NCBI GenBank assembly: GCA_032718475.1
Contig: JAUCBJ010000757.1
Location: 37,310 to 101,309, forward strand
Direction of reading: 5' to 3'
DNA from: Nemertoderma westbladi
Lineage: Eukaryota; Animalia; Xenacoelomorpha
DNA length: 64,000 nt
Positions 8,394 through 62,365 of this stretch are shown in pieces; the first letter of the stretch is position 1, and each line of letters opens with the position of its first letter. The notes under the pieces are model-generated. The model saw only the letters and a list, made by a program, of their open reading frames with translations. It was not told the origin of the DNA and ran no database searches. A program made the translations under genes and the position numbers.

Positions 8394-8778
8394 TTACCCA
8401 ATCGTGGGTAGACCATAATTAGCGACAGCTTTACTGTACACGCTTCCTAATCCTTGATAATATGAACGTTGGTTCGATTGTAACGTGATGCGAAGTGATT
8501 CCTGAAGATTCGTGTTGGGACAGTTGAGAGACCGAAGCACTGTCCCCAGACATGACTTATACGCCTCTAGCGAGAGTGTTCCGGTCCCAAAGAGGTGATT
8601 TAAGGTGTCATTTGATACATAACATCCAACGTGAAGAATTCCTCGCAGATGTTTCCTATAATAAATTTCCACCATATCAGTATCTTTCTTAGATAGTTCG
8701 CCAATGCGGAATTTCAGTCTGTACAATAGGGACGACAATCCAACAGACCGCCATAACAGAGCCACAATCCGTACAGGG
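8394..8778 (-). mobile_element. 3' fragment of a non-LTR retrotransposon ORF2 (post-RT region), truncated by the LTR element
   Basis: LLWRSVGLSSLLY...LSKKDTDMVEIYYRKHLRGILHV resembles LINE ORF2 C-terminal regions; it ends at the LTR start. Confidence 0.5.
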
Positions 8779-10016
8779 TGTAAAAGCCTTTGCTGAATTG
8801 CCCCGTTATTTTTATTATCTTTTACATTAAAATACTCTGTAGTTGATTTAATAAGTGTAAGAGACCGTATTATTGCTGTATCGGTGTTTTTAGAGGATCT
8901 AAGACCTATTTCCTCCGTATGTGTACTGTGAAAGGCATATTTTATGATTCTATGGCAATTCGTGACGCAAAGGGGTGATAGCTACTCTTGAACAGTAGTT
9001 ACTATGACTACGGTTAACAGCTGACATTCATACGTGTTGATTTCCTTTGTTCTACGGCGTCTCTCAGTTCAGTCAGCCAATTAGAGCGTTTTTGTGGCTC
9101 CTTGTACAGAAAATTTCCGAGAAATGACGCAATGCCTATGTGCAGTGTTTACATTCAGTCCTGAGCCAAAGAAAGAACGGCTTGGAAGTATTTTGTGCTT
9201 TACTGTTTTTAGTCTTACACTAGTAGGTTTAATTATAAAGGGCATATATCCTTTAACCTACCTGACTCATGGAATCACTGCTGACTGATCATACATGCTG
9301 ACTGCTGAAACATTGCAAACTCGTAACAATCAATGTTCAGTTGTTGTTTTATACTGCTATTTACTGTCAGTTCTTCATAATATGGTTGATGAATTATTAT
9401 ATTTGGAATAACGATAAATAACCCCGAAACCCAATATTCTTGATATACCGAAGGTAAGAGAGAAAGGTTACCAATAACGATTGTGACTTATGTTAAAGTG
9501 GTTTGAAGTGAATCCAATGTTATTTGATAGACCCTACATGATTCAGTCTGTGTTCCTTTTATATGTGACTAAAATCAGTGAAGATTGGCAGATTAGTGTG
9601 CAGTATTGTGCAGCATTGTGTATGAGTGAGTCTGTTAAAGAAGCAATTCCTAAAGAATGCGCCATATATGTGAATTATAATTAAGCCATATCGTTGTGAG
9701 TAGTTTAAGTCATAACTCTGTTTATATAGATAAAGCGCCACGTCCTAAAGGAACTGTTAATATTCCCGAAGGTGAATAATATTGTCAGAGATTATATAAT
9801 ACTGTCAGTCGAATAATACATTAGGCTTACATAGCAATAAAATTAAACCGTCGAACCCAATCTCCCAGGAATCTCCAGCGGGTGAATGGTCGCGCACGGA
9901 TTGGTTTCGACTAGTGTAGTGAATCAAATACTTGTCATAGACTAAAAACAGATTTAATATCTAGAAGACATCTTAATTTGGTGGGTTAAACTGCCAAAGG
10001 TCTGAAAGCGCGAACA
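8779..10016 (+). repeat. 5' LTR (1238 bp)
   Basis: TGTAAAAGCC...GCGCGAACA, matches 20235-21473. Confidence 0.95.
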
Positions 10017-10028
10017 TTAAAGGATATA
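10017..10028 (+). promoter_or_regulatory. Putative non-tRNA (self-priming) primer-binding site
   Basis: TTAAAGGATATA directly after the LTR-terminal CA; perfect reverse complement of LTR positions 9245-9256 (TATATCCTTTAA); no TGG-type PBS. Confidence 0.6.
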
Positions 10029-10329
10029 GCTTCTTTGTTGCAGTAAGCAATAAAGTTGAAAGTACCGGTCAACCGGTACATCTGTAGGTCAGTAGGCCCA
10101 ACTGCCAGAACCGGTACCAGTAGGCCTGACTACCTAACCACTCGGACCGGTACCTACAGCAGTACAGGTACAGCAGTATTATTCGATTTTGATAGTTATA
10201 TACCGGTAGGCCTTAATAATTAATCAGGGAGGGCCCGCCCTGGTTTTTTATTGAGATTTTTACTTATTTCTGTCAAGTTTTATTTATTTGTAAGCCAGTA
10301 TTGAACAGAAGGCGTGTAAACCTGATCAG

Positions 10330-10900
10330 ATTGTACAGACAATTTGTAGGCTGAGCTGTTGTCTGATTGCTGTTAAGTCTGAACGGATTACAGTGTGTGT
10401 AGAGCACTTGTCCGATTAAGTACGGTTAGGAAGTAGGGGCAGCCAATGCGGTCAGGTAAACCCCCAACTAAAGAATAAGTCGCACTACTGGGTTAGAGCG
10501 CATACTCCCTAATCATTTCGGAGTCTGCATGTCCTGTAGTTTATTTAGGCTTGAGAGTAGTCTGCCATCGTTTAGTCTGTACTTTGTTTGTGTAAGTCTG
10601 TACGGGTAGCGTATAATTTTATTTAGATAATTTGTAGGCTGGATAGTTGTCTGGCTGTTATTAGGTCTGAACGGATTGCCGTGTGTGTGGATCATCTGTC
10701 CGATTAAGTACGATTAGGCAGTAGGGGCAGCGAAGGCTGTAAGGTAAACCCCCAACTAAAGAATAAGTCGCACTACTGGGTTAGAGCGCATACTCCCTAA
10801 TCATTTCGGAGTCTGCATATACCGTGGTTTGTTTAGGCTTGATAGTAGTCTGTCAGTGTTCGGTCTGTATTTTGTTTGAGTAGTTTGTACGCGTAGCGTA
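10330..10900 (+). repeat. ~289-bp direct duplication in the retrotransposon leader
   Basis: ggtaaacccccaactaaagaataagtcgcactactgggttagagcgcatactccctaatcatttcggagtctgcat occurs at about 10455 and 10743. Confidence 0.85.
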
Positions 10901-12226
10901 ATATTTATTATTCAGAGTTTATGCGATTATTCGCAACATTCAAGTCCCCAAGTTTGTTCCTACAGTTATTGTGTTTGTTATACATACCGCTATAGTTAAA
11001 TTAACCTCGGTACTACACGGGCTGCTTGGCGTAGGTAAAGACTGGTGATTTTGTGCATCGGTCACTCCAGCAGATGCCGTGGTTCTTTTAGCTGTTCAAG
11101 TATATTTAATTACTGATTATCTGTTGTACAAGTACTCGTACCTAATTTAGGGTTTAGTGTACAGTGCTTTCCGAGAATAATTAGTGTAGGCATTATATTT
11201 GTGTTGTAAAGTGGTTGATAGGCACATTCGATTAGCTCTATTAACTTCTAGGTAGGAACACTCCGTGATACATAACGTAGAACCTATAGCGATACGGCTA
11301 TAGGTCGTCAGGCGGTGGTATTTTCCTATCTAGACAACGCAGTGTATTTACTACTACTTATTATTTCAAATACCGTAGTACTCTGTCCGTTGTAATAACC
11401 GGTTATCTAACCCTTTGTTAGGCTGGTTTGTAGACTTCTTGTAAAATGACCCTAAAAATTCGTATTTGTTTTTGTAAATTTTTGTGTTTATTTAGAGATT
11501 GTAATCTCACCCGAATTGTACGTAATTTGTAGTATTAAGTAACTTAGGTAAATTAGTATTATTTGTTTTAGTGTCTCATAAGTAACACTTCATTGAAAGC
11601 GCACCGCTTTGTGTAGTGATTACCCCCAGAAATAATAACATTTATTTCAAACATTGACAAAACCCATTAAAACGGGTATATATATATTATAAATCAAATC
11701 TAACGATTTATAAATAGTAGGCCTACCATACAACCATTAGGTCCCAATATCAGTTGGATTACTGCTCAAATAACGGTAATAAAGTAAGTAAAGTAACAAA
11801 GTAACCCTAAAGTAACAGAAATTCAATTATTTGAAATAATTGATATACCGGTATTTACGATAGGCCTATTATCTTTATTTCTATAAATCTAGGCTGAAAT
11901 TATACCGGTACTTGTAATTAATTCTATTTCAGAATTATATATCCTACAAACTGTAAGCTGTATACCGGTATTCCGATAGGCCTATTATATATTTATATAT
12001 ATTTGTGCTAAAATTATACCGGTATTCTGTGATAAACATAGTCTGTAATAATACTTATAGTGTTATATATACTATAAGCATACCGGTATTCTAATATATT
12101 ATATATATATCACGCTACACTGAGTAGCAGTACCGGTAATTAATTACTAGGCTAGCAGTTGATACTGAGTTATTAGACTTACTCAGACTGTAATACAGCA
12201 GTAGACATTCAACGGTATACATAGTC

Positions 12227-15200
12227 ATGTCTGATACTAAGCAGAACCTGTCAGACAGTTTATTAGATGTAACTATCTGCGACTCAGATAGAGACGTACA
12301 ACCGTCTGGTCGTAAATCCAGTTCACCTCCCACTGTGAGGAAGGTCATCCCTCCAGTAGTAATAACAGAACCTAGGCTGGTCCAACATCGTAGGTCTATC
12401 ATAGGCACCCGAGCTCAGGTCAAGCGGGACCAACAAGCGGCGGAACAGCAACAACCCGCTAGTCAAGAACTTATTCCTCAGCGGCCCAGCAGCTCCAGTA
12501 GTGAGGATACTGTAGAGCTGACACCCGAGAGCGGAGCAGAGATGACGGATGCGGTTTATACGGATCCCCTTCTCATCCTTCCTGCAGCCGTGCTCGCTGG
12601 GTTATTGATCGCGGTGGAAGAACACCAGATCGATTGGGCGAGAAGTCAACGGTCAACTAGAGATAGCTACGCGGGATACACTAGTGAAGAACTGAAGTCT
12701 ATTGTCGAGTCGCAATGGAACTTCCCCGGTCCTGGACTCCCGTTTGATTTATCAGAAGCTGCCTGGGAAGACATACACCGGATGGGAGTAGCCAAGGAAA
12801 CCATCGATCCAGCTGTGTGGAAGAGGTCCGCAGCCGGATACGCACAGGGATTCTTCAGCTCTATGGAGCGAGTAGAGAGACAACTGTTTCAACAACCTCA
12901 AGGACCTCAAGAGCAGGGATCGCTGCTTTATCAAGTTAGAGAAAGAGTTTTGCGGATTAGGCTAATCTTATCCGCCTTTGAAGAGGCTTCTAAAAGAAGA
13001 CAAGACACGTCGTTGCAAGTTGCCGTGAAGACTTGGTTTCAACGGGTGAGTCGCCAGGTTCAAGGAGCAGCTCAGTGGAAAGCTCAGTTGGAGGAGCGCT
13101 CAACCCATGGAGAATCAACAGACGCTACTTTTTCCCAAGTAGAAAGTGAAGCGACGGCAGAGAAACCGCATAAGAGGGATGCCATTGACATCTATCTGTC
13201 AGACTATCAACGTTTTTTAGGTGATGACGAGTTGAGGAGAAGGTTAGAGGGACTTAGCCCTAATAGTGAAGGAACCAAGCTTGTGTTGGATGCCATCGAT
13301 GTGGAAATGAGGGCTGCAAACCAGGCTAAATTCGATGAACAACTCCGCATCGTTAGAGAACAAGAAGAACAAGTAAGGAAAAAACGTATAGAAGACAGAA
13401 AGGCCGCAGCAAAAGCAGAGGCAGAGGCAAAAGCGGCAGCAGCAGAAGCAGCGGCAGAAGCAAAAGCGGCAGTAGCAAAGGCAGAGGCAGAGGCAAAAGC
13501 AGCAGAAGCAAAAGCGGCAGTAGCAAAGGCAGAGGCAGAGGCAAAAGCAGCAGAAGCAGCGGCAGAGGTAAAAGCGGCAGCGGCAGAGGCAAAAGCGGCA
13601 GCAGCAGAAGCAGAACGGAGAGCGGCTGAAGAGATCGCCCAACTGGAGTTGGAAACGCTTCAAGAGAAGCAAGACGACTTCAGTAAACAGTTAACAGCTA
13701 GTAATATGCAGATGATGAATCGATCTACTCCCAAAAGACAGGGATATACATCATCTGAAGAAGGCGATACCACCGATACTGAAGGCAAAGGAAATAGATC
13801 TCGTCAAAGCAGACGTAAAAGAACATTCCACCGGCAGAAATTGCCTGATTTGCCTCCAGCTGTTAGAAGGCAACTAAATAACACCAAAGTAGGTAGTACA
13901 GAGCCCACAGACCAAATAATTAAAATAGAAAGACTCCCTACTATAGTAGATGAGCCTGAAATAATTAGGCCTGTTCTTGAAATCACCCCTTCGGTGATAG
14001 ACGCACATGTGCTCCCTGAAACTACCTCTAAATTCCCTCTGCATAGCACTAAGCTACCTGTGCCCCGCAGAACTGCCCAAGAGACAGTTCAGGTCCTGGA
14101 CCCCGAGCGAAATATTCACAATTTGTCGCCCGTTGTCCCTCGTCCGCCCGCTACAACGTTGGCGACTCCCGCTTCGGCGGTCGAATGGGTGGACGAGAGA
14201 CGGCGGGGGATGGATATCCTGCTCGGGCAGATGCAGGAGACTGTCCAGCAATTCAAGGGCACAGTAAGGGAAAGTAGGCTAGAGTTGCAAGAAGTGCAGC
14301 AAAGTATCGCGCTTGAACGCGATAAATTAGTAAACACCCAAAAGGGTATACCACCACCCTCTGTAACAATGTGTCAACCTGTTAGGTCTGAAGTATTGCA
14401 TGCGCAAGGTGTGGAGCCTACACGCATATATACTGCTAGCGAAGTAGAAACTCCTATAGTGAACCCTATTAAGGGTAATTATAGACCTGTTGATAATGAT
14501 ATTCCCTATAGAACTGATCATAATCCGAGAAATTTATATACCGATAACTCGATATTAAATAGCACAATGGCCCAAGAAAGTTTTACGCGTCAAATGGCTA
14601 GAACCGAAGCCCGGCAAGCGGTAAAGGTTGGAGAGATCGTCAAGTTCAATGGAGATGAGATGAAATGGTTACCTTTTAATGAATATTACAAAGATAACAT
14701 ACAGAACTCTGTACTATCTAATGGAGAAAAACTTAGATACCTCATCGAGTGCTTGGAAGGATCTCCCAAGTTAATGGCGTTAAAGTTTATTGGACATCCA
14801 GACGGATTAAGACAAGTTTGGGATACACTAAACATCAGGTATGGTAATAGGAATAATATCGCTGGGTACTTGTATGCAAAGTTAGTAGCGCCCCGAAAGT
14901 TTATTAGTAGCGGAATTATCGAGTTTTCCGATGAGATCCAGGAGATCTGCAGACAATTAGATTGGCTAGGTAAGTCTCATGAGTATCAGAACACTATGGT
15001 TATTAGAGCAGTGGCTTCTACTTTACCGAAGGGTGGAGTAGGTACACGCTGGGATAAGAAAGTGTTATATATGATGGAACAACAACGACGAGACCCTACC
15101 ATGGCTGATCTCATGTCATTCTTAGATGGAGAAGTGAAATTACAGCTCCTAAGGCAGTCCAGAGAGAAGACATTGGAAAACAAGGTAAGTGAGAAACCCG

Positions 15201-17218
15201 TTTCTAGGAGAAGGGTAACACCAGTATGTTATACCGACGACGGTGAAAGCCAAACTTCTCAAGGAGAGGACAGCGGGAAAGACACTGACAGATCTTATTA
15301 TGTCAATAAAATGCCTAAAGATCAGGTAAGTAAATCCAAGTCTCGACCCAATGACAGAAGGGAACCGGTACAAAAAACCCCTCCTACGTCTCCTAAAAGA
15401 ATTCAGGTGAGAAAGCCCGAGGAAAGAACAAGTGTGCACCACATAGCACAGGTTAAAGTAAGTAACATCAAGCCGAAATGTGTGCTGTGCGACGGGCCCC
15501 ACCGTTTAAATGCGTGTGATAAATTCCTGAGGAAATCACTAAAGGATAGACGTGAAGTCATGTGGGATAAGCGGTTGTGTTATAATTGCCTCAGACGAGG
15601 ACACCAACGGCGAACCTGTAACTCCGACGCAAGGTGTGCAAAGTGCGGCGCAAAACATCATATCTTGTTGCACACGGAATTCGAACGAAACAGCCCGAGT
15701 CAGGTAAGTGAGTCCGAACTACATGTCCAATTCAGTGATGTGAACGACACTGATCAATCTGAGATGGAAGGATTCTATACGGACGAGTTCTCCGACCAAA
15801 ACGAATCCTGTTACCTAATAAACACCACCGCAGTGTATCGAGCACTCGTGTATGAGAAAGACACAGACAGCGACCTTACCTTAACTACTTCCGATCAACA
15901 ACCATCTTGGAAAGCGCCAACTTCCAATATAGGAATCCGAGAATTTCCTGTAGTCCAGTTACGGGTCCACGGACCTCAGAAGAGCTATATAGTGAACGCC
16001 CTCCTGGACTCCGGTAGCACAGGAACATTCATCGATAAAGAACTAGCCGAAGTCATCTTTGCTGGACAACCCAAGTTCCGAACCAAGCTAAACATGTCAG
16101 GGATCATGCAGGTTTGGAATTCTACTGTAGCTGCCGACTATTATATAGGTGAGTTGTCCACCCCCCAGGACGAACTAGGAGAACATAGCATCAGGTCAGT
16201 GAAAATGGTGGCTATAAAGAACTTCGCTACTACTCAAGCAGACCTTTATAATTGGGACGAGGATGAGAGCATCCAACATCTTAACATACCTCGATTCCAG
16301 ACTGATTATCCTGGAGTGCAAATACTCATCGGCCAAAACGCGCATGAGGCGCTGGAGACATTAGAGAAACGGCCTGCTCAACCGCAGCCACTACAGACCT
16401 ATGCGGTAAGAACTAGAGTAGGTTGGTACCTTACTGGACCTTCCCGTAGAACGCTCAGGGAAAGACTGCTTCAAGATCGCGTCTGCCAGGTGAGTGAATG
16501 GGAAGATGATACTAGTGAGGGAGACGACCCAACTGAGGGAACACCACACTCCTCAGATAATGACAATCTTAGCTCCAATGTAGATCAATGGAGATATTGC
16601 CCCAAGAAGTTTAATCCAACGGACATCGCTTCCAGAGGAGCAACTCCTCAAGAACTGACAGATACTATAGACCGGTTAGGTGAACCCGACTTCCTGAGTA
16701 AGGAGAATGAATGGCCTCCCCATCTTACTCCGACTGAGATTAGACCAGCCAAGGGAGCGGAGAAAGTCGAACCTGAAACCCGGACGGGTGGATCGGAGTT
16801 ATTTGAACCCGGGATAGATCTGTCGGTATTACATGTTGCCAGGGACGACGCCGTGGATCTGGGCCTCCCCACCGCGAGTGGATCCTTCATGAAGATCAGA
16901 GAGAGCGATTGGAGCTCTGGAACATCAGACGTCTCGCAGGGACTCTCACCTCTCCTGCAGAGAGCGACGGACCACTATAGCTCCTGGAATCGGCTTTGTG
17001 ACGCCGTCATATACTTTGAGCGATGTTTCTATCGTCACTATTCCAGGACGAAGAGGAAACCTGGAATTGTATTCAGGATGCAGCGACTCAATCACCCAGT
17101 CGGTCGTTTGTGTTTATCGGAAGGGAATGGAGGACTCTCCGGAAACTGTGGAAGGCAAGATTCTCTTCCCACGACCACCTCCCTAATCCTTCAAACATCT
17201 AGGGACTCCATAACGTAA
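12227..17218 (+). CDS. BEL/Pao Gag-protease polyprotein (1663 aa) with in-frame loss of RT/most RNase H and no integrase
   Basis: DUF1759-like Gag (FNGDEMKWLPF...LSNGEKLRYL); three BEL-type Cys/His knuckles (CVLCDGPHRLNAC, CYNCLRRGHQRRTC, CAKCGAKHHILLH); aspartic protease ALLDSGS; YAVRTRVGWYLTGP; then RNase H tail QWRYCPKKFNPTDIASRG. Confidence 0.92.
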   Translation: MSDTKQNLSDSLLDVTICDSDRDVQPSGRKSSSPPTVRKVIPPVVITEPRLVQHRRSIIGTRAQVKRDQQAAEQQQPASQELIPQRPSSSSSEDTVELTPESGAEMTDAVYTDPLLILPAAVLAGLLIAVEEHQIDWARSQRSTRDSYAGYTSEELKSIVESQWNFPGPGLPFDLSEAAWEDIHRMGVAKETIDPAVWKRSAAGYAQGFFSSMERVERQLFQQPQGPQEQGSLLYQVRERVLRIRLILSAFEEASKRRQDTSLQVAVKTWFQRVSRQVQGAAQWKAQLEERSTHGESTDATFSQVESEATAEKPHKRDAIDIYLSDYQRFLGDDELRRRLEGLSPNSEGTKLVLDAIDVEMRAANQAKFDEQLRIVREQEEQVRKKRIEDRKAAAKAEAEAKAAAAEAAAEAKAAVAKAEAEAKAAEAKAAVAKAEAEAKAAEAAAEVKAAAAEAKAAAAEAERRAAEEIAQLELETLQEKQDDFSKQLTASNMQMMNRSTPKRQGYTSSEEGDTTDTEGKGNRSRQSRRKRTFHRQKLPDLPPAVRRQLNNTKVGSTEPTDQIIKIERLPTIVDEPEIIRPVLEITPSVIDAHVLPETTSKFPLHSTKLPVPRRTAQETVQVLDPERNIHNLSPVVPRPPATTLATPASAVEWVDERRRGMDILLGQMQETVQQFKGTVRESRLELQEVQQSIALERDKLVNTQKGIPPPSVTMCQPVRSEVLHAQGVEPTRIYTASEVETPIVNPIKGNYRPVDNDIPYRTDHNPRNLYTDNSILNSTMAQESFTRQMARTEARQAVKVGEIVKFNGDEMKWLPFNEYYKDNIQNSVLSNGEKLRYLIECLEGSPKLMALKFIGHPDGLRQVWDTLNIRYGNRNNIAGYLYAKLVAPRKFISSGIIEFSDEIQEICRQLDWLGKSHEYQNTMVIRAVASTLPKGGVGTRWDKKVLYMMEQQRRDPTMADLMSFLDGEVKLQLLRQSREKTLENKVSEKPVSRRRVTPVCYTDDGESQTSQGEDSGKDTDRSYYVNKMPKDQVSKSKSRPNDRREPVQKTPPTSPKRIQVRKPEERTSVHHIAQVKVSNIKPKCVLCDGPHRLNACDKFLRKSLKDRREVMWDKRLCYNCLRRGHQRRTCNSDARCAKCGAKHHILLHTEFERNSPSQVSESELHVQFSDVNDTDQSEMEGFYTDEFSDQNESCYLINTTAVYRALVYEKDTDSDLTLTTSDQQPSWKAPTSNIGIREFPVVQLRVHGPQKSYIVNALLDSGSTGTFIDKELAEVIFAGQPKFRTKLNMSGIMQVWNSTVAADYYIGELSTPQDELGEHSIRSVKMVAIKNFATTQADLYNWDEDESIQHLNIPRFQTDYPGVQILIGQNAHEALETLEKRPAQPQPLQTYAVRTRVGWYLTGPSRRTLRERLLQDRVCQVSEWEDDTSEGDDPTEGTPHSSDNDNLSSNVDQWRYCPKKFNPTDIASRGATPQELTDTIDRLGEPDFLSKENEWPPHLTPTEIRPAKGAEKVEPETRTGGSELFEPGIDLSVLHVARDDAVDLGLPTASGSFMKIRESDWSSGTSDVSQGLSPLLQRATDHYSSWNRLCDAVIYFERCFYRHYSRTKRKPGIVFRMQRLNHPVGRLCLSEGNGGLSGNCGRQDSLPTTTSLILQTSRDSIT

Positions 17219-20200
17219 CAACATATGGAGTGGGTGTGTGACTCTATTATTTTATATTATTTTATTATTTTTATATTTATGTATGTATTACTATGTAATT
17301 TTATTATAATCGTTTTCTTTAATTTTATTCAGTAGAATGTTATTTTAGCGATTATTTAGTAGATTAGTGCAATATATATTCGCGTTTATTACTTAATTAC
17401 GTATATATTATATTTAATGCGACGGCAAGAAATAATTCTTTTTCTCTTTCCTTACTGTCCGTATTATATTATAAATACGTAACTACAGTAAGATGAAATG
17501 TCCGTACTTATTAAAGTACAATAAAGCCACTACTATATTTAAGTATTATTGGTAGGCAGAGTATTAGGAATGCAAAGTTCAGATCCTCGTGTCTCGGCTA
17601 AACCAAGCTCTGGGTAGACCTTGGAAACGACTTGCCTCTTCACACTGACATTGCTTCGTGCGATATTGCTCTCATACCGTATATTAAATAATACATATAG
17701 TAGCGTGATGTCCCTTTAACAGTAGCGTATAACGCAAAATAAATCTGTTAAACCCTTTGACCATCTGTAATTCTAGTCGATTAAGATATCGCGGCACCCA
17801 CCGATATACTTGAAAGACAAATTCTAGAATCAGTGGTTAACGTCCCCAGACAAGTTCTGGAATAAATCGGTGCCCATCTCAAATATTAATTATTTAATAT
17901 TTGCAAATCTAATAAGTCAAAATCTGTAAAATTCAGATCCTTCAACAATTCTAGTCAATTAAGATATCGTAGCATTTACCGATATTCTTAAAGAGACAAT
18001 TTTCTTAGAATTAAGGATCTTGTGTCCCTAGACATGTTCTAGAATCAAAATATGTCCATTTAATTATCAAATAATAAAATTTCAGGGAATAAATTTAAAT
18101 TCATGCCTTTTAATGAATTTAATAAATTGCCATTTTACGCAATTTATAAAGTTCCCAAAATTCCATTAATTAATAGATCAAGGGAGCGGAGATTTATATT
18201 ATTATGCGTATGCGTGTACGAAAGTCTCCCAAACATAGTTAATAGCCGATAAAATTCTTAAAGTCATGTATAAACAGGACATTGACTATTAAAGAATTCC
18301 TATTAAATAACATCCCAGATCTGTATGCATTGGAATTACTCTAATTCTACCGCTAGCTTTGCATAATGTCACCATAGCAACAACCACGCTAGAATTAGAA
18401 TTGAGTTAAAAGAACAATAGAAAGCTTGTCCCATTGAATAGCATAGGGAATAAATAGCGCACTGCTAGTATCCAAGGATACATAATAATACAGTGACATT
18501 CTGGAAGGCATTGACTAACGGACAAATGGCCCGAATGTGTGTAATTTGTGATAAGTTGTGTGTGTGGTATTTGTGAGTTTATAGGTGAATGTTACTGCTA
18601 AGGTGTGTTTACAGTAGCTAGTCGCAATCGTAAAAGTAACCTAACTCTCCAAGGAAACCTGAAGTACATCTAAGCCTTTGGGACGGACAGTTGAGTGACT
18701 TGTGCCGGTTGTCGTTGTCGTTGTGCGGCTACGTCGTTGGCGAAAGCACAGCGGCGACGACACATCGGCGCTGAGGATCTCGTACTGTCCGGGGGTTGAT
18801 TGGGTAGGCAGCGACGCCCGCTCGCCTAAATATAAACTCATTATAATATGGATAAACTCATATATAGCAGATATGACGGAGTTGATAGAAGATGGTCTTA
18901 GTATCGGGGAGCGATATACTCTACCTTTACAAGCGTTTGTCGATAGCTTGATATGCGGCGACGCTGATCCAACTACTACGGAGGACGGTGGTCGTTATAT
19001 CGAACCGCCAATGTCCCAAGAGCAACTTACGCGTGAATTGGATTATAGAAAGTTCACTGCTCGCTACACGCATCGTAATGGTACGTATATGGACTTCTTG
19101 ACCACTGGTCATCCTATCGATTTACATAATACGGACTATGTCGACTATATATCCTGCCCAGCGGAGTCGGAACCATAAACTGAAATTCGAATGCGAAAAT
19201 TCTATTCGAAATCGACTCGAAAGAAAAGACACTAAGAAACAAATGGACGCGGTAACTCCAACGTATATTTGGAATTCTTGATAGAAGCATTGTAACAACA
19301 AATAAATATCACCCGCGTTTACCCTACCAGACGTGCGTCTTTGGTATTATTACGATAAATGCCCTAGACCCAACTAATAAACGGAAAGACATAAACATCC
19401 ACGTAAACCGAAACTTGTTGACGTATCACCTATGCTCACTCGGCTCGAACGATCCTGGAGTAAACCTACGATCAGAGTCCCGGAATACTCGGTCAAACCT
19501 CCTCATTCCTTAGTTGGACCTCAGACCTGCGATCCTGGTGGTGTCGCGGATCCTCGTGGACTGTATTCACTGTTCAAAGATCTAGTGCTACCCTAACAAT
19601 TAATCGGTAACACTCCGACAGTGATTTCTAGCTAGCCGCCCATCTTACCTAGCCGGATTGTGATGCGGACACCTAATATCACTATCCTACCGTATGGTCG
19701 TCCCCGTTTAACGCGATACAACCCTTCATCAAGGTGAAGGAGAGTTTTGTACGAAACGAGTTAAACGTGATTCTATAAAGATCAAAAAGGAAACCTGCGT
19801 TTGTTCAGATAAACGTAAGTTATAACAGTAAGTCCAATCGATAAACGAATTGGCCTTATCTCGGTTCGATTGGGAAATCTCGAATCTCTAAGAAGATATC
19901 AAGCTTAGAAAACCCTATTCTCTGCGAGAGTTTTGGACGAACATATCCCATGACAAGCGGAGGAAAATCAGCTCGAGGAGAAGCATATCGAAATGGACGA
20001 GACACCGACAGTAAACCCAAACCTTCTAATGCAATCATATTGCACCCTTCACCCAGGAGTTATGGCCCTCCTAGTAAAGTGGTTCCCCCCAAAGAGAAAA
20101 GGACTCTTGCTAGCTTTAAAAAACTGCGTAAACGCCGTCCGCGCGAGAAAGACTAACTGTTTAGAGTATCTTTAGGTTTTAGAAACTGTGATTTTTATAT

Positions 20201-20224
20201 TTTATAGACTGAAAATCCCATTTT

Positions 20225-20234
20225 CTGGGAGCGG
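20225..20234 (+). promoter_or_regulatory. Polypurine-tract-like plus-strand primer site
   Basis: CTGGGAGCGG immediately before the TG of the 3' LTR. Confidence 0.55.
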
Positions 20235-21473
20235 TGTAAAAGCCTTTGCTGAATTGCCCCGTTATTTTTATTATCTTTTACATTAAAATACTCTGTAGTT
20301 GATTTAATAAGTGTAAGAGACCGTATTATTGCTGTATCGGTGTTTTTAGAGGATCTAAGACCTATTTCCTCCGTATGTGTACTGTGAAAGGCATATTTTA
20401 TGATTCTATGGCAATTCGTGACGCAAAGGGGTGATAGCTACTCTTGAACAGTAGTTACTATGACTACGGTTAACAGCTGACATTCATACGTGTTGATTTC
20501 CTTTGTTCTACGGCGTCTCTCAGTTCAGTCAGCCAATTAGAGCGTTTTTGTGGCTCCTTGTACAGAAAATTTCCGAGAAATGACGCAATGCCTATGTGCA
20601 GTGTTTACATTCAGTCCTGAGCCAAAGAAAGAACGGCTTGGAAGTATTTTGTGCTTTACTGTTTTTAGTCTTACACTAGTAGGTTTAATTACAAGGACAT
20701 ATATCCTTTAACTACCTGACTCATGGAATCACCTGCTAACTGATCATACATACTGACTGCTGAAACATTGCAAACTCATAACAATCAGTGTTTTCATTGT
20801 TGTTTTATACTGCTATTTACCGTCAGTTCTTCATAATATGGTTGATGAATAATTATATTTGGAATAACGATAAATAACCCCGAAACCCAATATTCTTGAT
20901 ATACCGAAGGTAAGAGAGAAGGGTTACAGATAAACGATTGTGACTTATGTTAAAGTGGTTTGAAGTGAATCTAATGTTATTTGATAGACCCTACATGAGT
21001 CAGTCTGTGTTCCTTTTATATGTGACTAAAATCAGTGAAGATTGGCAGATTAGTGTGCAGTATTGTGCAGCATTGTGTATGAGTGAGTCTGTTAAAGAAG
21101 CAATTCCTAAAGAATGCGCCATATATGTGAATTATAATTAAGCCATATCGTTGTGAGTAGTTTAAGTCATAACTCTGTTTATATAGATAAAGCGCCACGT
21201 CCTAAAGGAACTGTTAATATTACCGAAGGTGAATAACATTGTCAGAGATTATATAGTACTGTCAGTCGAATAATACATTAGGCTTACATAGCAATAAAAT
21301 TAAACCGTCGAACCCAATCTCCCGGGAATATCCAGCGGGTGAATGATCGCGCACAGATTGGTTTCGACTAGTGTAGTGAATCAAATACTTGTCATAGACT
21401 AAAAACAGATTTAATATCTAGAAGACATCTTAATTTGGTGGGTTAAACTGCCAAAGGTCTGAAAGCGCGAACA
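20235..21473 (+). repeat. 3' LTR (1239 bp)
   Basis: Matches 8779-10016; first 457 bp identical, remainder divergent. Confidence 0.95.
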
Positions 21474-22126
21474 TACTGGTACGCCTACCATTATCGGTGC
21501 CAGCTCCGGTACAGGTACAGGTAGTGGTTCAGATGGGGTTTGTTGCGTGACATTCAAATCCCCACAAGTAGAAGCAGATTCGCTTGCAGGAGCAGTACTA
21601 CTACCGCTGGTAGTGTCGGATGCTGCTCTTGTCCGCTGACGCAATGGATAGGTTTTTCTAACGGCATCCATGGTGAAATCCTCTTACTGATACCGGTACC
21701 TAATATCTTTCACCTTTACAGTAGGTATCTGTGTCGTGTGTACCGGTACTGATCTTGTCACAAAATCACAAACCCTAGTGAAACCCCACTGCCGTAGTCT
21801 ACCATTATTTTGGCCAGGTTAGTGGTGTGTAGGGCAGTACTGCAGTCCACATTGCCTGAATGAATATTATAAATTACCTATTTAAAATTACCACTCTCGA
21901 AAATATTTTAAACTACGTTACTAAAAACAATTTATTGATTGGTGGACTATTGCTGGTATTAGGGCGGGTCGGATCCTAACGGATCAGAGCGGATCCGATC
22001 GGATAGAAACCCACAAAATATACTAAGCTACCAAGGCGAGTCTGGGATACTTACTACGGTATAGCAGACTGAGCCTACCTGCAATAAACTTAATTTCACT
22101 TACCTACCACTTCACTAATACTGTGC

Positions 22127-25228: not shown

Positions 25229-59043
<33,815 letters not shown>

Positions 59044-59383
59044 CTAGTGAATACAAATAGTATATGTATGTATGTATGTATGTATGTATATATACAAAAG
59101 GGTACCTAATGGTGTTCAATATGTAGATTTACACCATAATGTGATTTTTGTACTACAGCAAGTGACCATTGAGCGAGAATAAAACATAAGGTGTTCGGGA
59201 AATTTGTGACCATAAAGAGAGTTTGACAAACACATATTAAAACACATTAATTAAATGAAACAGTTACTAACAAGTCTATAATACTAACTCGAGGATATGA
59301 TTCATTTTATCAGTCCCAATTGCAATGTGAAATGAAGCATTTATTTTAAATATTTATTAATTATTGCATGCATAGCAAGTCGT

Positions 59384-62365
59384 CCCCAGGCTGGGGTCGA
59401 TAAATTGGCTACTGGAACAGAAGACAGAGAAGAAAGAAGAACCAACCTGTTGAAATGTAAAAAGACACTAAAGATTGCTACAATGAACGCACGCACGCTG
59501 AAAGCACAGAGCAAACAGGGTGACATGGTCGCTCTGGCAATGGAATATAACATCGACATCATCTGCATCCAAGAACATCGGATTTGTCATGAAGACACTG
59601 CCATGAGGTACAATGACATTGGAAATGGATGGACGTTAGTAACAAGCTCAGCAGTAAGAAACTCGGCCAATGCATCAATTGGTGGAGTAGGAATTCTGTT
59701 AAGCCCATTTGCACTTAAGACCCTAAACAACATCGAATCTATAAATTCCAGGGTTATGATCGCAACATTTGATGGGAATCCCAAGACAACAGTTATATGT
59801 TGCTACAGTCCAACCAATGCATCAGAGCCAGAACAAGCAGTCAAGTTTTATGAAGAACTGACTGGACTTATTAAGGACATCCCGAAACACAATGTTAAAG
59901 TCATTGCTGGTGACCTGAATGCGCAAATTGGCCCAGAAGACATCAAGGGTTACACCTATAACACCAGTTCTAACAGAAATGGGTACTTACTCTTAGACCT
60001 AATGGAAGAATGTGAATTGATACCAACAAACAACACATTCGAAAAGAGTAAGGGGAAGCTATGGACCTTTCAATACCTTAATGGAACCAAAGCACAACTG
60101 GATTACATCCTTATAAACAAAAAGTGGAGAAATAGCATGATCAACTGCGAGGCATACAGCTCGTTCAACCTAATTGGTTCGGACCACAGAATTGTGACTG
60201 CAGAGATCAGACTCAGTTTGAGAGCCAGCAAACCCAGGACAAGCAAGCAAATCAACTATGACTGGGAGAAACTCAGAACTGACAATGCTGTAAAGGGTGC
60301 TTATACAGTAGAAGTTCAAAACCGCTTTGAAGCACTTCAGTCAATGGATGAAGACCAATCCACCGATTCAATATACCAGAATATAATAACAGCCCACAAG
60401 GAATCAGCTAAGAGGCATATCCCCCAGAAACCTAAACGAAAACAGTATGTGCCATGGCAAAACTCTGAGGTTACTTGTAAGAGAGAAGATCTTAAGATAG
60501 CCTACAAAGTTAAAACCGAACAACCAACAACCGAAAACATTAACAAGGTTGAGAAAGCTAAGGACGATCTTAAATTGGCCTACAACATCAGCCAGGAAAA
60601 GTACATACAGGATAAAACTGAAGCAATTACAACTGCTCACATACAGCAACAATCAAGACTTACCTGGCAAACTGTAAATGAGGTATCTGGTCGGAAAAGT
60701 TGTGCAAAGGGGCGCCTCAAAGCCGATAATCCTGAAGAACGTGTTGGGAAGTGGAAAAATCACTTCAGCAACTTGCTTGGGCAGCCACCAAACATCGAGG
60801 TCAGCCCTATAAGGAAAATATATGACAAGACACTACCTATAGAAACAGGGGACTTCACACCTGCCGAACTCCAAAGAAGCATTAAAAGCATGTCCAATAA
60901 TAAAGCGAGTGGATTAGATGAAATCCCAGCGGAGGTATGGAAAACCGGAGTGCTAAATAGACCATTATTGAATGTTTGCAACCGGATGTTAAAAGGGGAA
61001 AAGCCACCACCAATTTGGACTAAAGGTCAACTAAAGCCTCTCCCCAAGAAAGGAGACCTCGGCATACCAACAAACTATCGTGGGATCTGTCTGCTTGTGG
61101 TAGCTGCCAAAATATACAATAAAATGATTCTATATAGGATTAGGCCTCACATAGAGAAACTACTGCGTAAGAGCCAAAACGGATTTCGACCAAGTAGATC
61201 AACAATAGCTCAGATACTTGCACTGCGGAGACTAATTGAAGGAATTAAGTCAAATAATCTCCCCGCAGTCATGACTTTTGTGGACTTCAAGAAGGCATTC
61301 GACTCCATCCATAGAGGTAAAATGCTTGAAATCTTAAGAGCTTATGGAATACCAGAAGTAATTGTTGCTGGCATTGGATTGCTATATTGTGACACAGAAG
61401 CGCAGGTACTCTCACCAGATGGTGAAACTGAATTTTTCTCAATCCTGGCTGGCGTACTGCAAGGTGACACATTAGCACCATTACTATTTGTAATTGTGCT
61501 GGATTACGCAATGGGGACGGCCACAAAGGGTGAAGATCTGGGATTCACACTTCAAGAACGCAGAAGTAGTAGATATCCGGCAACTACAGTCACAGACACC
61601 GACTTTGCGGATGACATCGCCCTGCTCTCTAATACGCTAACAGATGCACAGCTTCTACTAAATAAAGTGGAGAGGGCTGCTAAGGAGGTTGGATTGCATA
61701 TAAATGCTACCAAGACCGAATTCATGACCTTTAATGTTGATGGAAACTTGACAACCATTGATAATAATCAACTAAGGAAGGTCGATGACTTCCAGTACCT
61801 TGGATCATGGATAGAGAGTAGCAAAAAGGACATAGAAGTTAGGAAAGCAAAGGCTTGGGTAGCTCTATCAAAAATGGATACCATCTGGAAATCAGATCTC
61901 TCCAGGCACCTGAAGACCAAGTTCTTTCGAGCCACAGTGGAAAGTGTATTTTTATACGGGGGTGAGACCTGGACACTGACTAAATCACTTGAACAACGAA
62001 TTGATGGTTGCTACACAAGACTACTAAGGGCAGCCCTAAACATCAGCTGGAGACAACACATGACAAACGCCGAGCTTTATGGTACAATACCACCTGTATC
62101 AACCACCCTCCGCGAACGCAGATAAAGTTTCAGTGGGCACTGCTGGCGAAGTAAAGACGAGGTCATACCAGATCTACTTCTCTGGCAACCAACTCATGGA
62201 AAGCGTAGTCGTGGACGACCTGCCATAACATATATAGATCAACTTGAAAGGGATACTGAACTTGGGAGAAACGAAATTGCGACAACTATGGAGAATCGGG
62301 AAGCCTGGAAGGATTTCATTTCCACTGTCCGAGTTCGCTCGACCTAGTAGTAGTAGTAGTAGTAG
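59384..62365 (+). mobile_element. Near full-length RTE LINE (APE endonuclease + RT) with one premature stop at 62123-62125
   Basis: ATMNART, IQEHR, GDLNA, LDYIL, SDH endonuclease motifs; GVLQGD and FADD RT motifs; (TAG)n tail; target-site duplication TAGCAAGTCGT at 59373-59383 and 62363-62373; TAA here corresponds to TTA in the other copy. Confidence 0.96.

Follow-up and report, generated by a model that had tools for sequence, protein, structure and literature searches.

The 64-kb window, by which we mean the whole stretch of DNA analysed here, carries a non-autonomous BEL/Pao element whose primer site is complementary to a stretch of its own long terminal repeat (LTR). This element is likely primed by its own RNA and not by a tRNA, a reading to which we assign a probability of about 0.78. 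No tRNA site is present, the primer site finds its complement in the LTR of the element itself, and in four related families the corresponding sites pair with different letters; the lineage thus likely self-primes. Most likely we are dealing with a mechanism already known elsewhere, now in a superfamily whose priming is attributed to tRNA; the present case adds a primer without an intron, in a family of many copies, and a family-wide sequence boundary one base past that primer.

Architecture of the window element

The element is a 12.7-kb BEL/Pao LTR retrotransposon, in which gag and protease are retained and reverse transcriptase (RT) and integrase are deleted. Its main features are given below.

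8779–10016, + strand: 5' LTR of 1238 nt, TG...CA (self-BLAST against the 3' LTR, 97.8% identity)
9454–9459, + strand: putative splice-donor-like GTAAGA within the LTR, 3' of the 12-mer described in the next section (motif scan)
9836–9841, + strand: AATAAA, candidate polyadenylation signal (motif scan)
12194–17218, + strand: open frame of 1674 aa with BEL/Pao gag, aspartic protease and a short piece from the end of RNase H, no RT or integrase
20227–20234, + strand: short purine-rich tract GGGAGCGG preceding the 3' LTR
20235–21473, + strand: 3' LTR, TG...CA (self-BLAST against the 5' LTR, 97.8% identity)

On the evidence of its predicted proteins the element is a BEL/Pao derivative, as the sequence-only reading had proposed. 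Its gag carries DUF1759 (PF03564, E 2e-11) and three Cys/His knuckles, a protease is present, and the best protein matches of the frame are Pao polyproteins. Alignments with these polyproteins run up to about residue 1430 of the 1674-aa frame and resume at about residue 1460 within the RNase H end, and the RNase H scrap comes after the protease. Since RT and integrase are absent from this copy, a partner element is required. No close relative of the protein is found among 1.84 billion representatives, where the best 150 matches share 25–37% identity, and a search with the frame at E 1e-20 gives 0 matches.

The LTR pair is a mosaic. All 27 differences are located in 9236–9898 (663 nt) and none in 8779–9235 or 9899–10016, and several of the 27 are common family variants. 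A clean target-site duplication is not found: the 5' flank ends with TACAGGG and the 3' flank begins with TACTGGT, which gives only a shifted one-mismatch likeness. With LTR differences confined in this way and no clean duplication, the copy may be recombinant, a pattern that suggests recombination or conversion, or else a mixed-up assembly. The flanks (8772–8778 and 21474–21478) read TACAG, GG and then the LTR on the 5' side, and TACTG on the 3' side, and the GG of the 5' flank is the same two bases that precede the 3' LTR. This likeness may reflect a duplication with one mismatch whose end was not trimmed, or it may be accidental.

Within the element, a 288-nt tandem duplication is observed in the 2.2-kb leader (10341–10900), and the 3-kb stretch ahead of the 3' LTR (17219–20234) holds a 159-aa frame that is unmatched in Pfam and in the compared BEL proteins. 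Elsewhere in the window, satellite arrays are found at 33972–40496, 44214–50342 and 51724–58089 with units of 34, 31, 42, 58, 56 and 31 nt, and the long open frames within them are by-products. A frame for an endonuclease-RT of LINE type is located, together with two fragments of RT, at 59336–62125 (+ strand) and 42302–43851 (- strand).

The primer site and its complement in the LTR

The 12-mer TATATCCTTTAA is found at 9245–9256 and 20700–20711 on the + strand and at 10017–10028 on the - strand. No further copy exists in the 64-kb window with up to 1 mismatch allowed. The features around these sites are as follows.

9245–9256, + strand: predicted primer from the element's own RNA, complementary to the primer site at all 12 positions (sequence match, shuffle test)
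9258–9340, + strand: segment varying between family copies, right after the 12-mer and one C (depth fall, loose ends; joints from 9257 to 9341)
9978–9997, + strand: predicted U5 hairpin (fold; the common family C at 9982 makes a U-G pair C-G)
10017–10028, + strand: position of the primer-binding site, flush with the LTR, no TGG
10033–10055, + strand: predicted 9-bp leader hairpin (fold; the common family A at 10037 makes a G-U pair A-U)
20700–20711, + strand: 3' LTR copy of the 12-mer (sequence match)

With the LTR limits taken from self-comparison, the complement begins at the first base past the 5' LTR, and neither TGG nor an 18-nt tRNA primer site follows the 5' LTR of the element. The 12-mer search and the LTR boundaries together bear out the earlier claim that a flush and exact 12-nt complement of the LTR stands in place of a TGG site. 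Dinucleotide shuffling of the LTR yields a flush match of at least 12 nt 13 times in 20,000, and among 10,177 internal positions taken as mock primer sites there are 2 such matches; the chance of the match in the window is 2–7 in 10,000. Rfam and ARAGORN detect no tRNA-like RNA in the element, and there is no tRNA-like gene in the window. In a motif scan of the LTR, no TATA consensus is matched upstream of 9245, and initiator-like motifs are found at 9064 and 9155.

The sequence-only reading had also pointed to the preservation of the 12-mer in both LTRs despite changed flanks. The flanking differences (9236, 9237, 9242 and 9257) are real, but the preservation is weak as evidence. With 27 differences in 663 nt a 12-nt stretch would stay unchanged about 6 times in 10, so the identity between both LTRs carries little weight, and we reject it as evidence for self-priming since it is expected by chance. 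The differences at 9236, 9237 and 9242 are positioned 5' of the predicted cut, and self-priming leaves all three unexplained.

The predicted duplex between 9245–9256 and 10017–10028 has an energy of -11.6 kcal/mol. It is predicted in 4 of 12 RNA fragments (starts 9235–9246, end 10060) and has a probability of 0 in the other 8. Since the prediction depends on the fragment ends, folding is neutral on self-priming. A longer bulged duplex, in which 9235–9244 would pair on to 10038 (-20.4 kcal/mol), was rejected because it is matched by 188 of 1164 other LTR 15-mers. For the two predicted hairpins, the family letter C at 9982 accounts for 62–100% of the depth in four sequencing runs, and the family letter A at 10037 for 91–100%.

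These four public runs (X1, X3, X4 and X5), three from one organism and one from another, were surveyed through their contigs and reveal that the window element belongs to a multi-copy family. Family copies match the window up to 9257 and then diverge. From 9257 to 9258 the depth drops from 201,566 to 57,777 in X1, from 142,445 to 33,277 in X3 and from 6,695 to 1,193 in X4, and loose contig ends begin behind 9257 in all four runs. The block shared by the family ends at 9257, one base beyond the 12-mer. One X5 contig has 1 difference across 9206–9257 against 19 substitutions across 9258–9318. Nine indel rows are recorded in the four runs (two at 9236–9237, six at 9257–9264 and one behind 9255 that spares the 12-mer), and none is listed within the LTR 12-mer. 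Among the best-supported 40 of 230 variants in the four runs, none is found in either 12-mer (9245–9256 or 10017–10028), nor is a matched double change of 12-mer and primer site seen within the family among these 40 in the unphased tables. A point against self-priming is another X5 contig (depth 8.5), which reads TATATCCGTTAT with two changes in the 12-mer. The 12-mer does not stand alone as an island but is the end of a conserved block that includes all of U3, so promoter constraint alone could explain part of its conservation.

Related families and tRNA-type controls

The gag-protease of the window groups with BEL/Pao proteins of marine invertebrates (FastTree 0.98, SH-aLRT 89.7, 524 columns), and in the tree this group is separate from all TGG-type loci. 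A shorter alignment gives the same grouping (0.93, SH-aLRT 76.3). The nearest protein group, which includes abalone and sea-urchin proteins, was initially chosen by similarity to the window query, and fast trees were used. Because the window protein is the deepest and longest branch of the group, its kinship with the four relatives described below is moderate.

These relatives are members of the nearest protein group on animal-like contigs of a single genome record, G001. TGG is absent in all four members with a readable 5' junction (L121, L124, L127 and L129), and each primer site has a match in its own LTR: 11 of 11 nt in L121 (both LTRs, ATGTG duplication), 10 of 11 in L124 (both LTRs, TCTAC duplication), 11 of 11 in L127 (5' LTR only, offset 3 nt) and 15 of 15 in L129 (LTR end taken from the sister copy L122, offset 3 nt). 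In all four the match spans a predicted GT(A/G)AG...AG intron inside the LTR. The same test is passed by 16 of 6538 mock internal sites in L121, 24 of 2088 in L124, 0 of 1508 in L127 and 0 of 1765 in L129. The primer sites of the window, L121, L124 and L127 show 2–3 mismatches against each other's LTRs. The expected covariation of primer site and LTR stretch among related elements agrees with the four readable relatives, each with its own site, and an ordinary tRNA site, which the sequence-only reading took as evidence against self-priming, did not emerge in any of them.

In the five families the 3' end of the match is the first base after the LTR or at most 3 nt from it. The perfect block begins 4–9 nt ahead of the splice donor in the relatives, and the loop would be about 120–240 nt after splicing versus 760 nt in the window element. 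In L121, L124 and L127, 3–4 further leader bases seem, by eye, to pair with the LTR past a 2–4-nt bulge. All three primers terminate in AC, and a conserved C follows the 12-mer of the window. As for the other G001 loci, L122 and L128 have no 5' junction, L125 is a fragment, and L126 and L130 are TGG-type elements. Three more matches to the purine-tract pattern in G001 are not elements of the same kind as the four relatives.

Metagenome and genome scans run with two BEL/Pao alignments yielded 92 loci, of which 87 were examined. Trees place none of the scan loci in the nearest protein group of the window, and since the scan alignments proved to be other BEL/Pao groups, their loci serve as controls only. 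A TGG-type motif is positioned just past the LTR end in 47 of the 87 loci, with a longest flush self-match of 3–10 nt (10 nt in L052); in this set L005 and L009 are mis-anchored, and 40 loci, mostly truncated, have no readable motif. In eleven tRNA-type BEL/Pao controls whose LTRs are defined, 3–5 mismatches are required, and nothing comparable to the self-matching sites of the relatives is seen. No BEL/Pao locus is found on viral contigs in any of five scans. PF05380 matches are present in genomes filed as bacterial (13 in G001, 7 in G002, 7 in G003 and 1 in G004), and their BEL/Pao contigs are likely animal DNA. In L070 (88–101) and L083 (206–218), two BEL/Pao loci outside the group of the window, a non-TGG sequence follows the likely end of an incomplete LTR. 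L088, L089 and L090 are 13-kb BEL/Pao elements with TGG-type sites and two extra long frames downstream of pol.

Proposed mechanism, alternatives and significance

In the mechanism that we propose, the transcript would start at 9245 or some way upstream, and 9245–9256 would anneal to 10017–10028. RNase H of an RT from an intact partner would cut after A9256, the freed 3' end would be extended from A10016 back to 9257, and the strong-stop DNA would be transferred to the 3'-terminal R copy of the RNA. The sequence 3' of the cut would form the loop and reach new copies via the strong-stop DNA, which would explain the many different sequences behind one shared block. The four relatives would obtain their primer by splicing out an LTR intron; that of the window element would be ready-made. 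Because the perfect block of the relatives begins only 4–9 nt before the donor, their RNA would start further upstream, and the primer of the window may likewise not be the very first bases of the RNA, unlike in Tf1. Self-priming independent of tRNA, as suggested earlier for the window element, gains support from the family-wide boundary at 9257 and from the four families with self-complementary sites of their own. At slightly less than even odds, a marine-animal branch of BEL/Pao would have dropped tRNA priming altogether; the primer of most members would be spliced from two LTR exons, with splicing gating reverse transcription, and the high-copy family of the window would have lost the primer intron and escaped this gate.

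A comparison with known systems shows both likenesses and differences. According to the available text of PMC7175516 and PMC4600332, Tf1 anneals its first 11 bases to the site, and RNase H cleaves the RNA between bases 11 and 12; self-priming of Tj1 is inferred likewise (PMC4600332, available text), and for the Tcn1 Gypsy and TAR Copia lineages it is predicted in the available part of PMC6317226. As in Tf1/Tf2 of Schizosaccharomyces pombe, Tj1, Tf1/sushi and Tcn1 of Ty3/gypsy, so far as these sources describe them, the window element has no tRNA site, and 11–12 nt adjoining the 5' LTR are complementary to a stretch further upstream in the LTR. Unlike the Tf1 group, it is of another superfamily, with a 760-nt loop, no RT in the copy and a start possibly upstream of the primer, and in its relatives the primer appears to be assembled by splicing. 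With regard to membership in Tf1/sushi, Ty3/gypsy chromovirus proteins are absent and the window proteins are of BEL/Pao type. The TAR lineage of Ty1/copia (Houba, Osr-1) resembles the present case in that self-priming outside Gypsy is predicted from sequence alone; in contrast to the relatives of the window, TAR is a plant Copia lineage, and the available part of PMC6317226 describes no splicing step. The Conserved Hairpin Site of fungal GalEa Copia also stands in for a tRNA site, but it is a local palindrome and hairpin with no LTR complement found, as far as the available text of PMC5445492 goes, whereas the window site has one. The ICTV describes Belpaoviridae as primed by host tRNA, with an 18-nt site for tRNA-Arg or tRNA-Gly, and replication of BEL/Pao as poorly understood (PMC8742986). 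The window element agrees with this family in its LTRs (up to 1.2 kb), in a DUF1759 gag that has three knuckles, and in having a protease, the remains of RNase H and a purine tract, but it lacks the 18-nt tRNA-Arg or tRNA-Gly site (PMC8742986).

No case of BEL/Pao self-priming was found in the literature searched, a scope that leaves subscription journals and Repbase notes outside. The Caenorhabditis elegans BEL element Cer7 has a self-encoded tRNA-like primer; the literature search found no relevant paper on it. The available text of the BEL/Pao papers PMC3118150, PMC554778, PMC6238403 and PMC8556966, supplements aside, makes no mention of 'PBS' or 'tRNA', and BEL/Pao self-priming is not found in the available parts of PMC3601003, PMC5445492, PMC8220671, PMC11042837, PMC5443660 and PMC2656454.

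The match could be due to chance, the true primer being a host tRNA half or a mitochondrial tRNA fragment, comparable to the tRNA halves used by Copia elements. The 12-mer is AT-rich, and the same 12 letters are present in the 3' LTR region of the TGG-type element L051. The FunCo1 site ATTAAGAGTCT complements the inside of tRNA-Lys (PMC5445492, available text), and the window site also begins with (A)TTAA. However, the likeness to FunCo1 stops after 5 letters, a match by chance is expected only 2–7 times in 10,000, and no tRNA-like gene exists in the window. A tRNA fragment would also leave the four relatives with their different self-matching sites unexplained, and we regard it as an improbable primer. 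It is also conceivable that the pairing exists but serves a structural purpose, in packaging, dimer formation or control of translation, or that it arose once through a copying accident in a defective copy. Conserved hairpins on either side of the site would agree with this, as would a copy that is deleted, mosaic and without a clean target-site duplication. The 3' end of the match argues otherwise, being placed in all five families at or within 3 nt of the first base past the LTR, where priming must start. In addition, no alternative primer site is present, and 10017–10028 shows no variant among the best-supported 40 of 230 in the four runs, so that a structural role or an accident is very improbable.

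Another alternative keeps the priming and drops the geometry of Tf1. The primer would then come from the 3' R copy (20700–20711) of the same RNA, from the 5' part of a second RNA packaged alongside it, or from the interior of a longer 5' end. That the 3' LTR also carries the 12-mer, upstream of its AATAAA equivalent, is in line with such a route, and so are the 5' loop of 760 nt against about 120–240 nt in the spliced relatives, the sensitivity of the predicted fold to fragment boundaries, and the start of the relatives' perfect block 4–9 nt before the donor. Tf1, on the other hand, shows that a 5' cis route can work (PMC7175516, available text); the data here fit cis and trans alike. We consider a departure from the Tf1 geometry unlikely.

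Priming by the element's own RNA, if true, would mean that self-priming is present in all three LTR superfamilies. It would also change annotation practice for BEL/Pao elements, since filters based on tRNA sites overlook elements that self-prime. Such elements would, we infer, be beyond host control via 3' tRNA fragments. With an intron-split primer in the relatives and a ready-made one in the window family, it would be possible to test directly if reverse transcription is controlled at its start by splicing.
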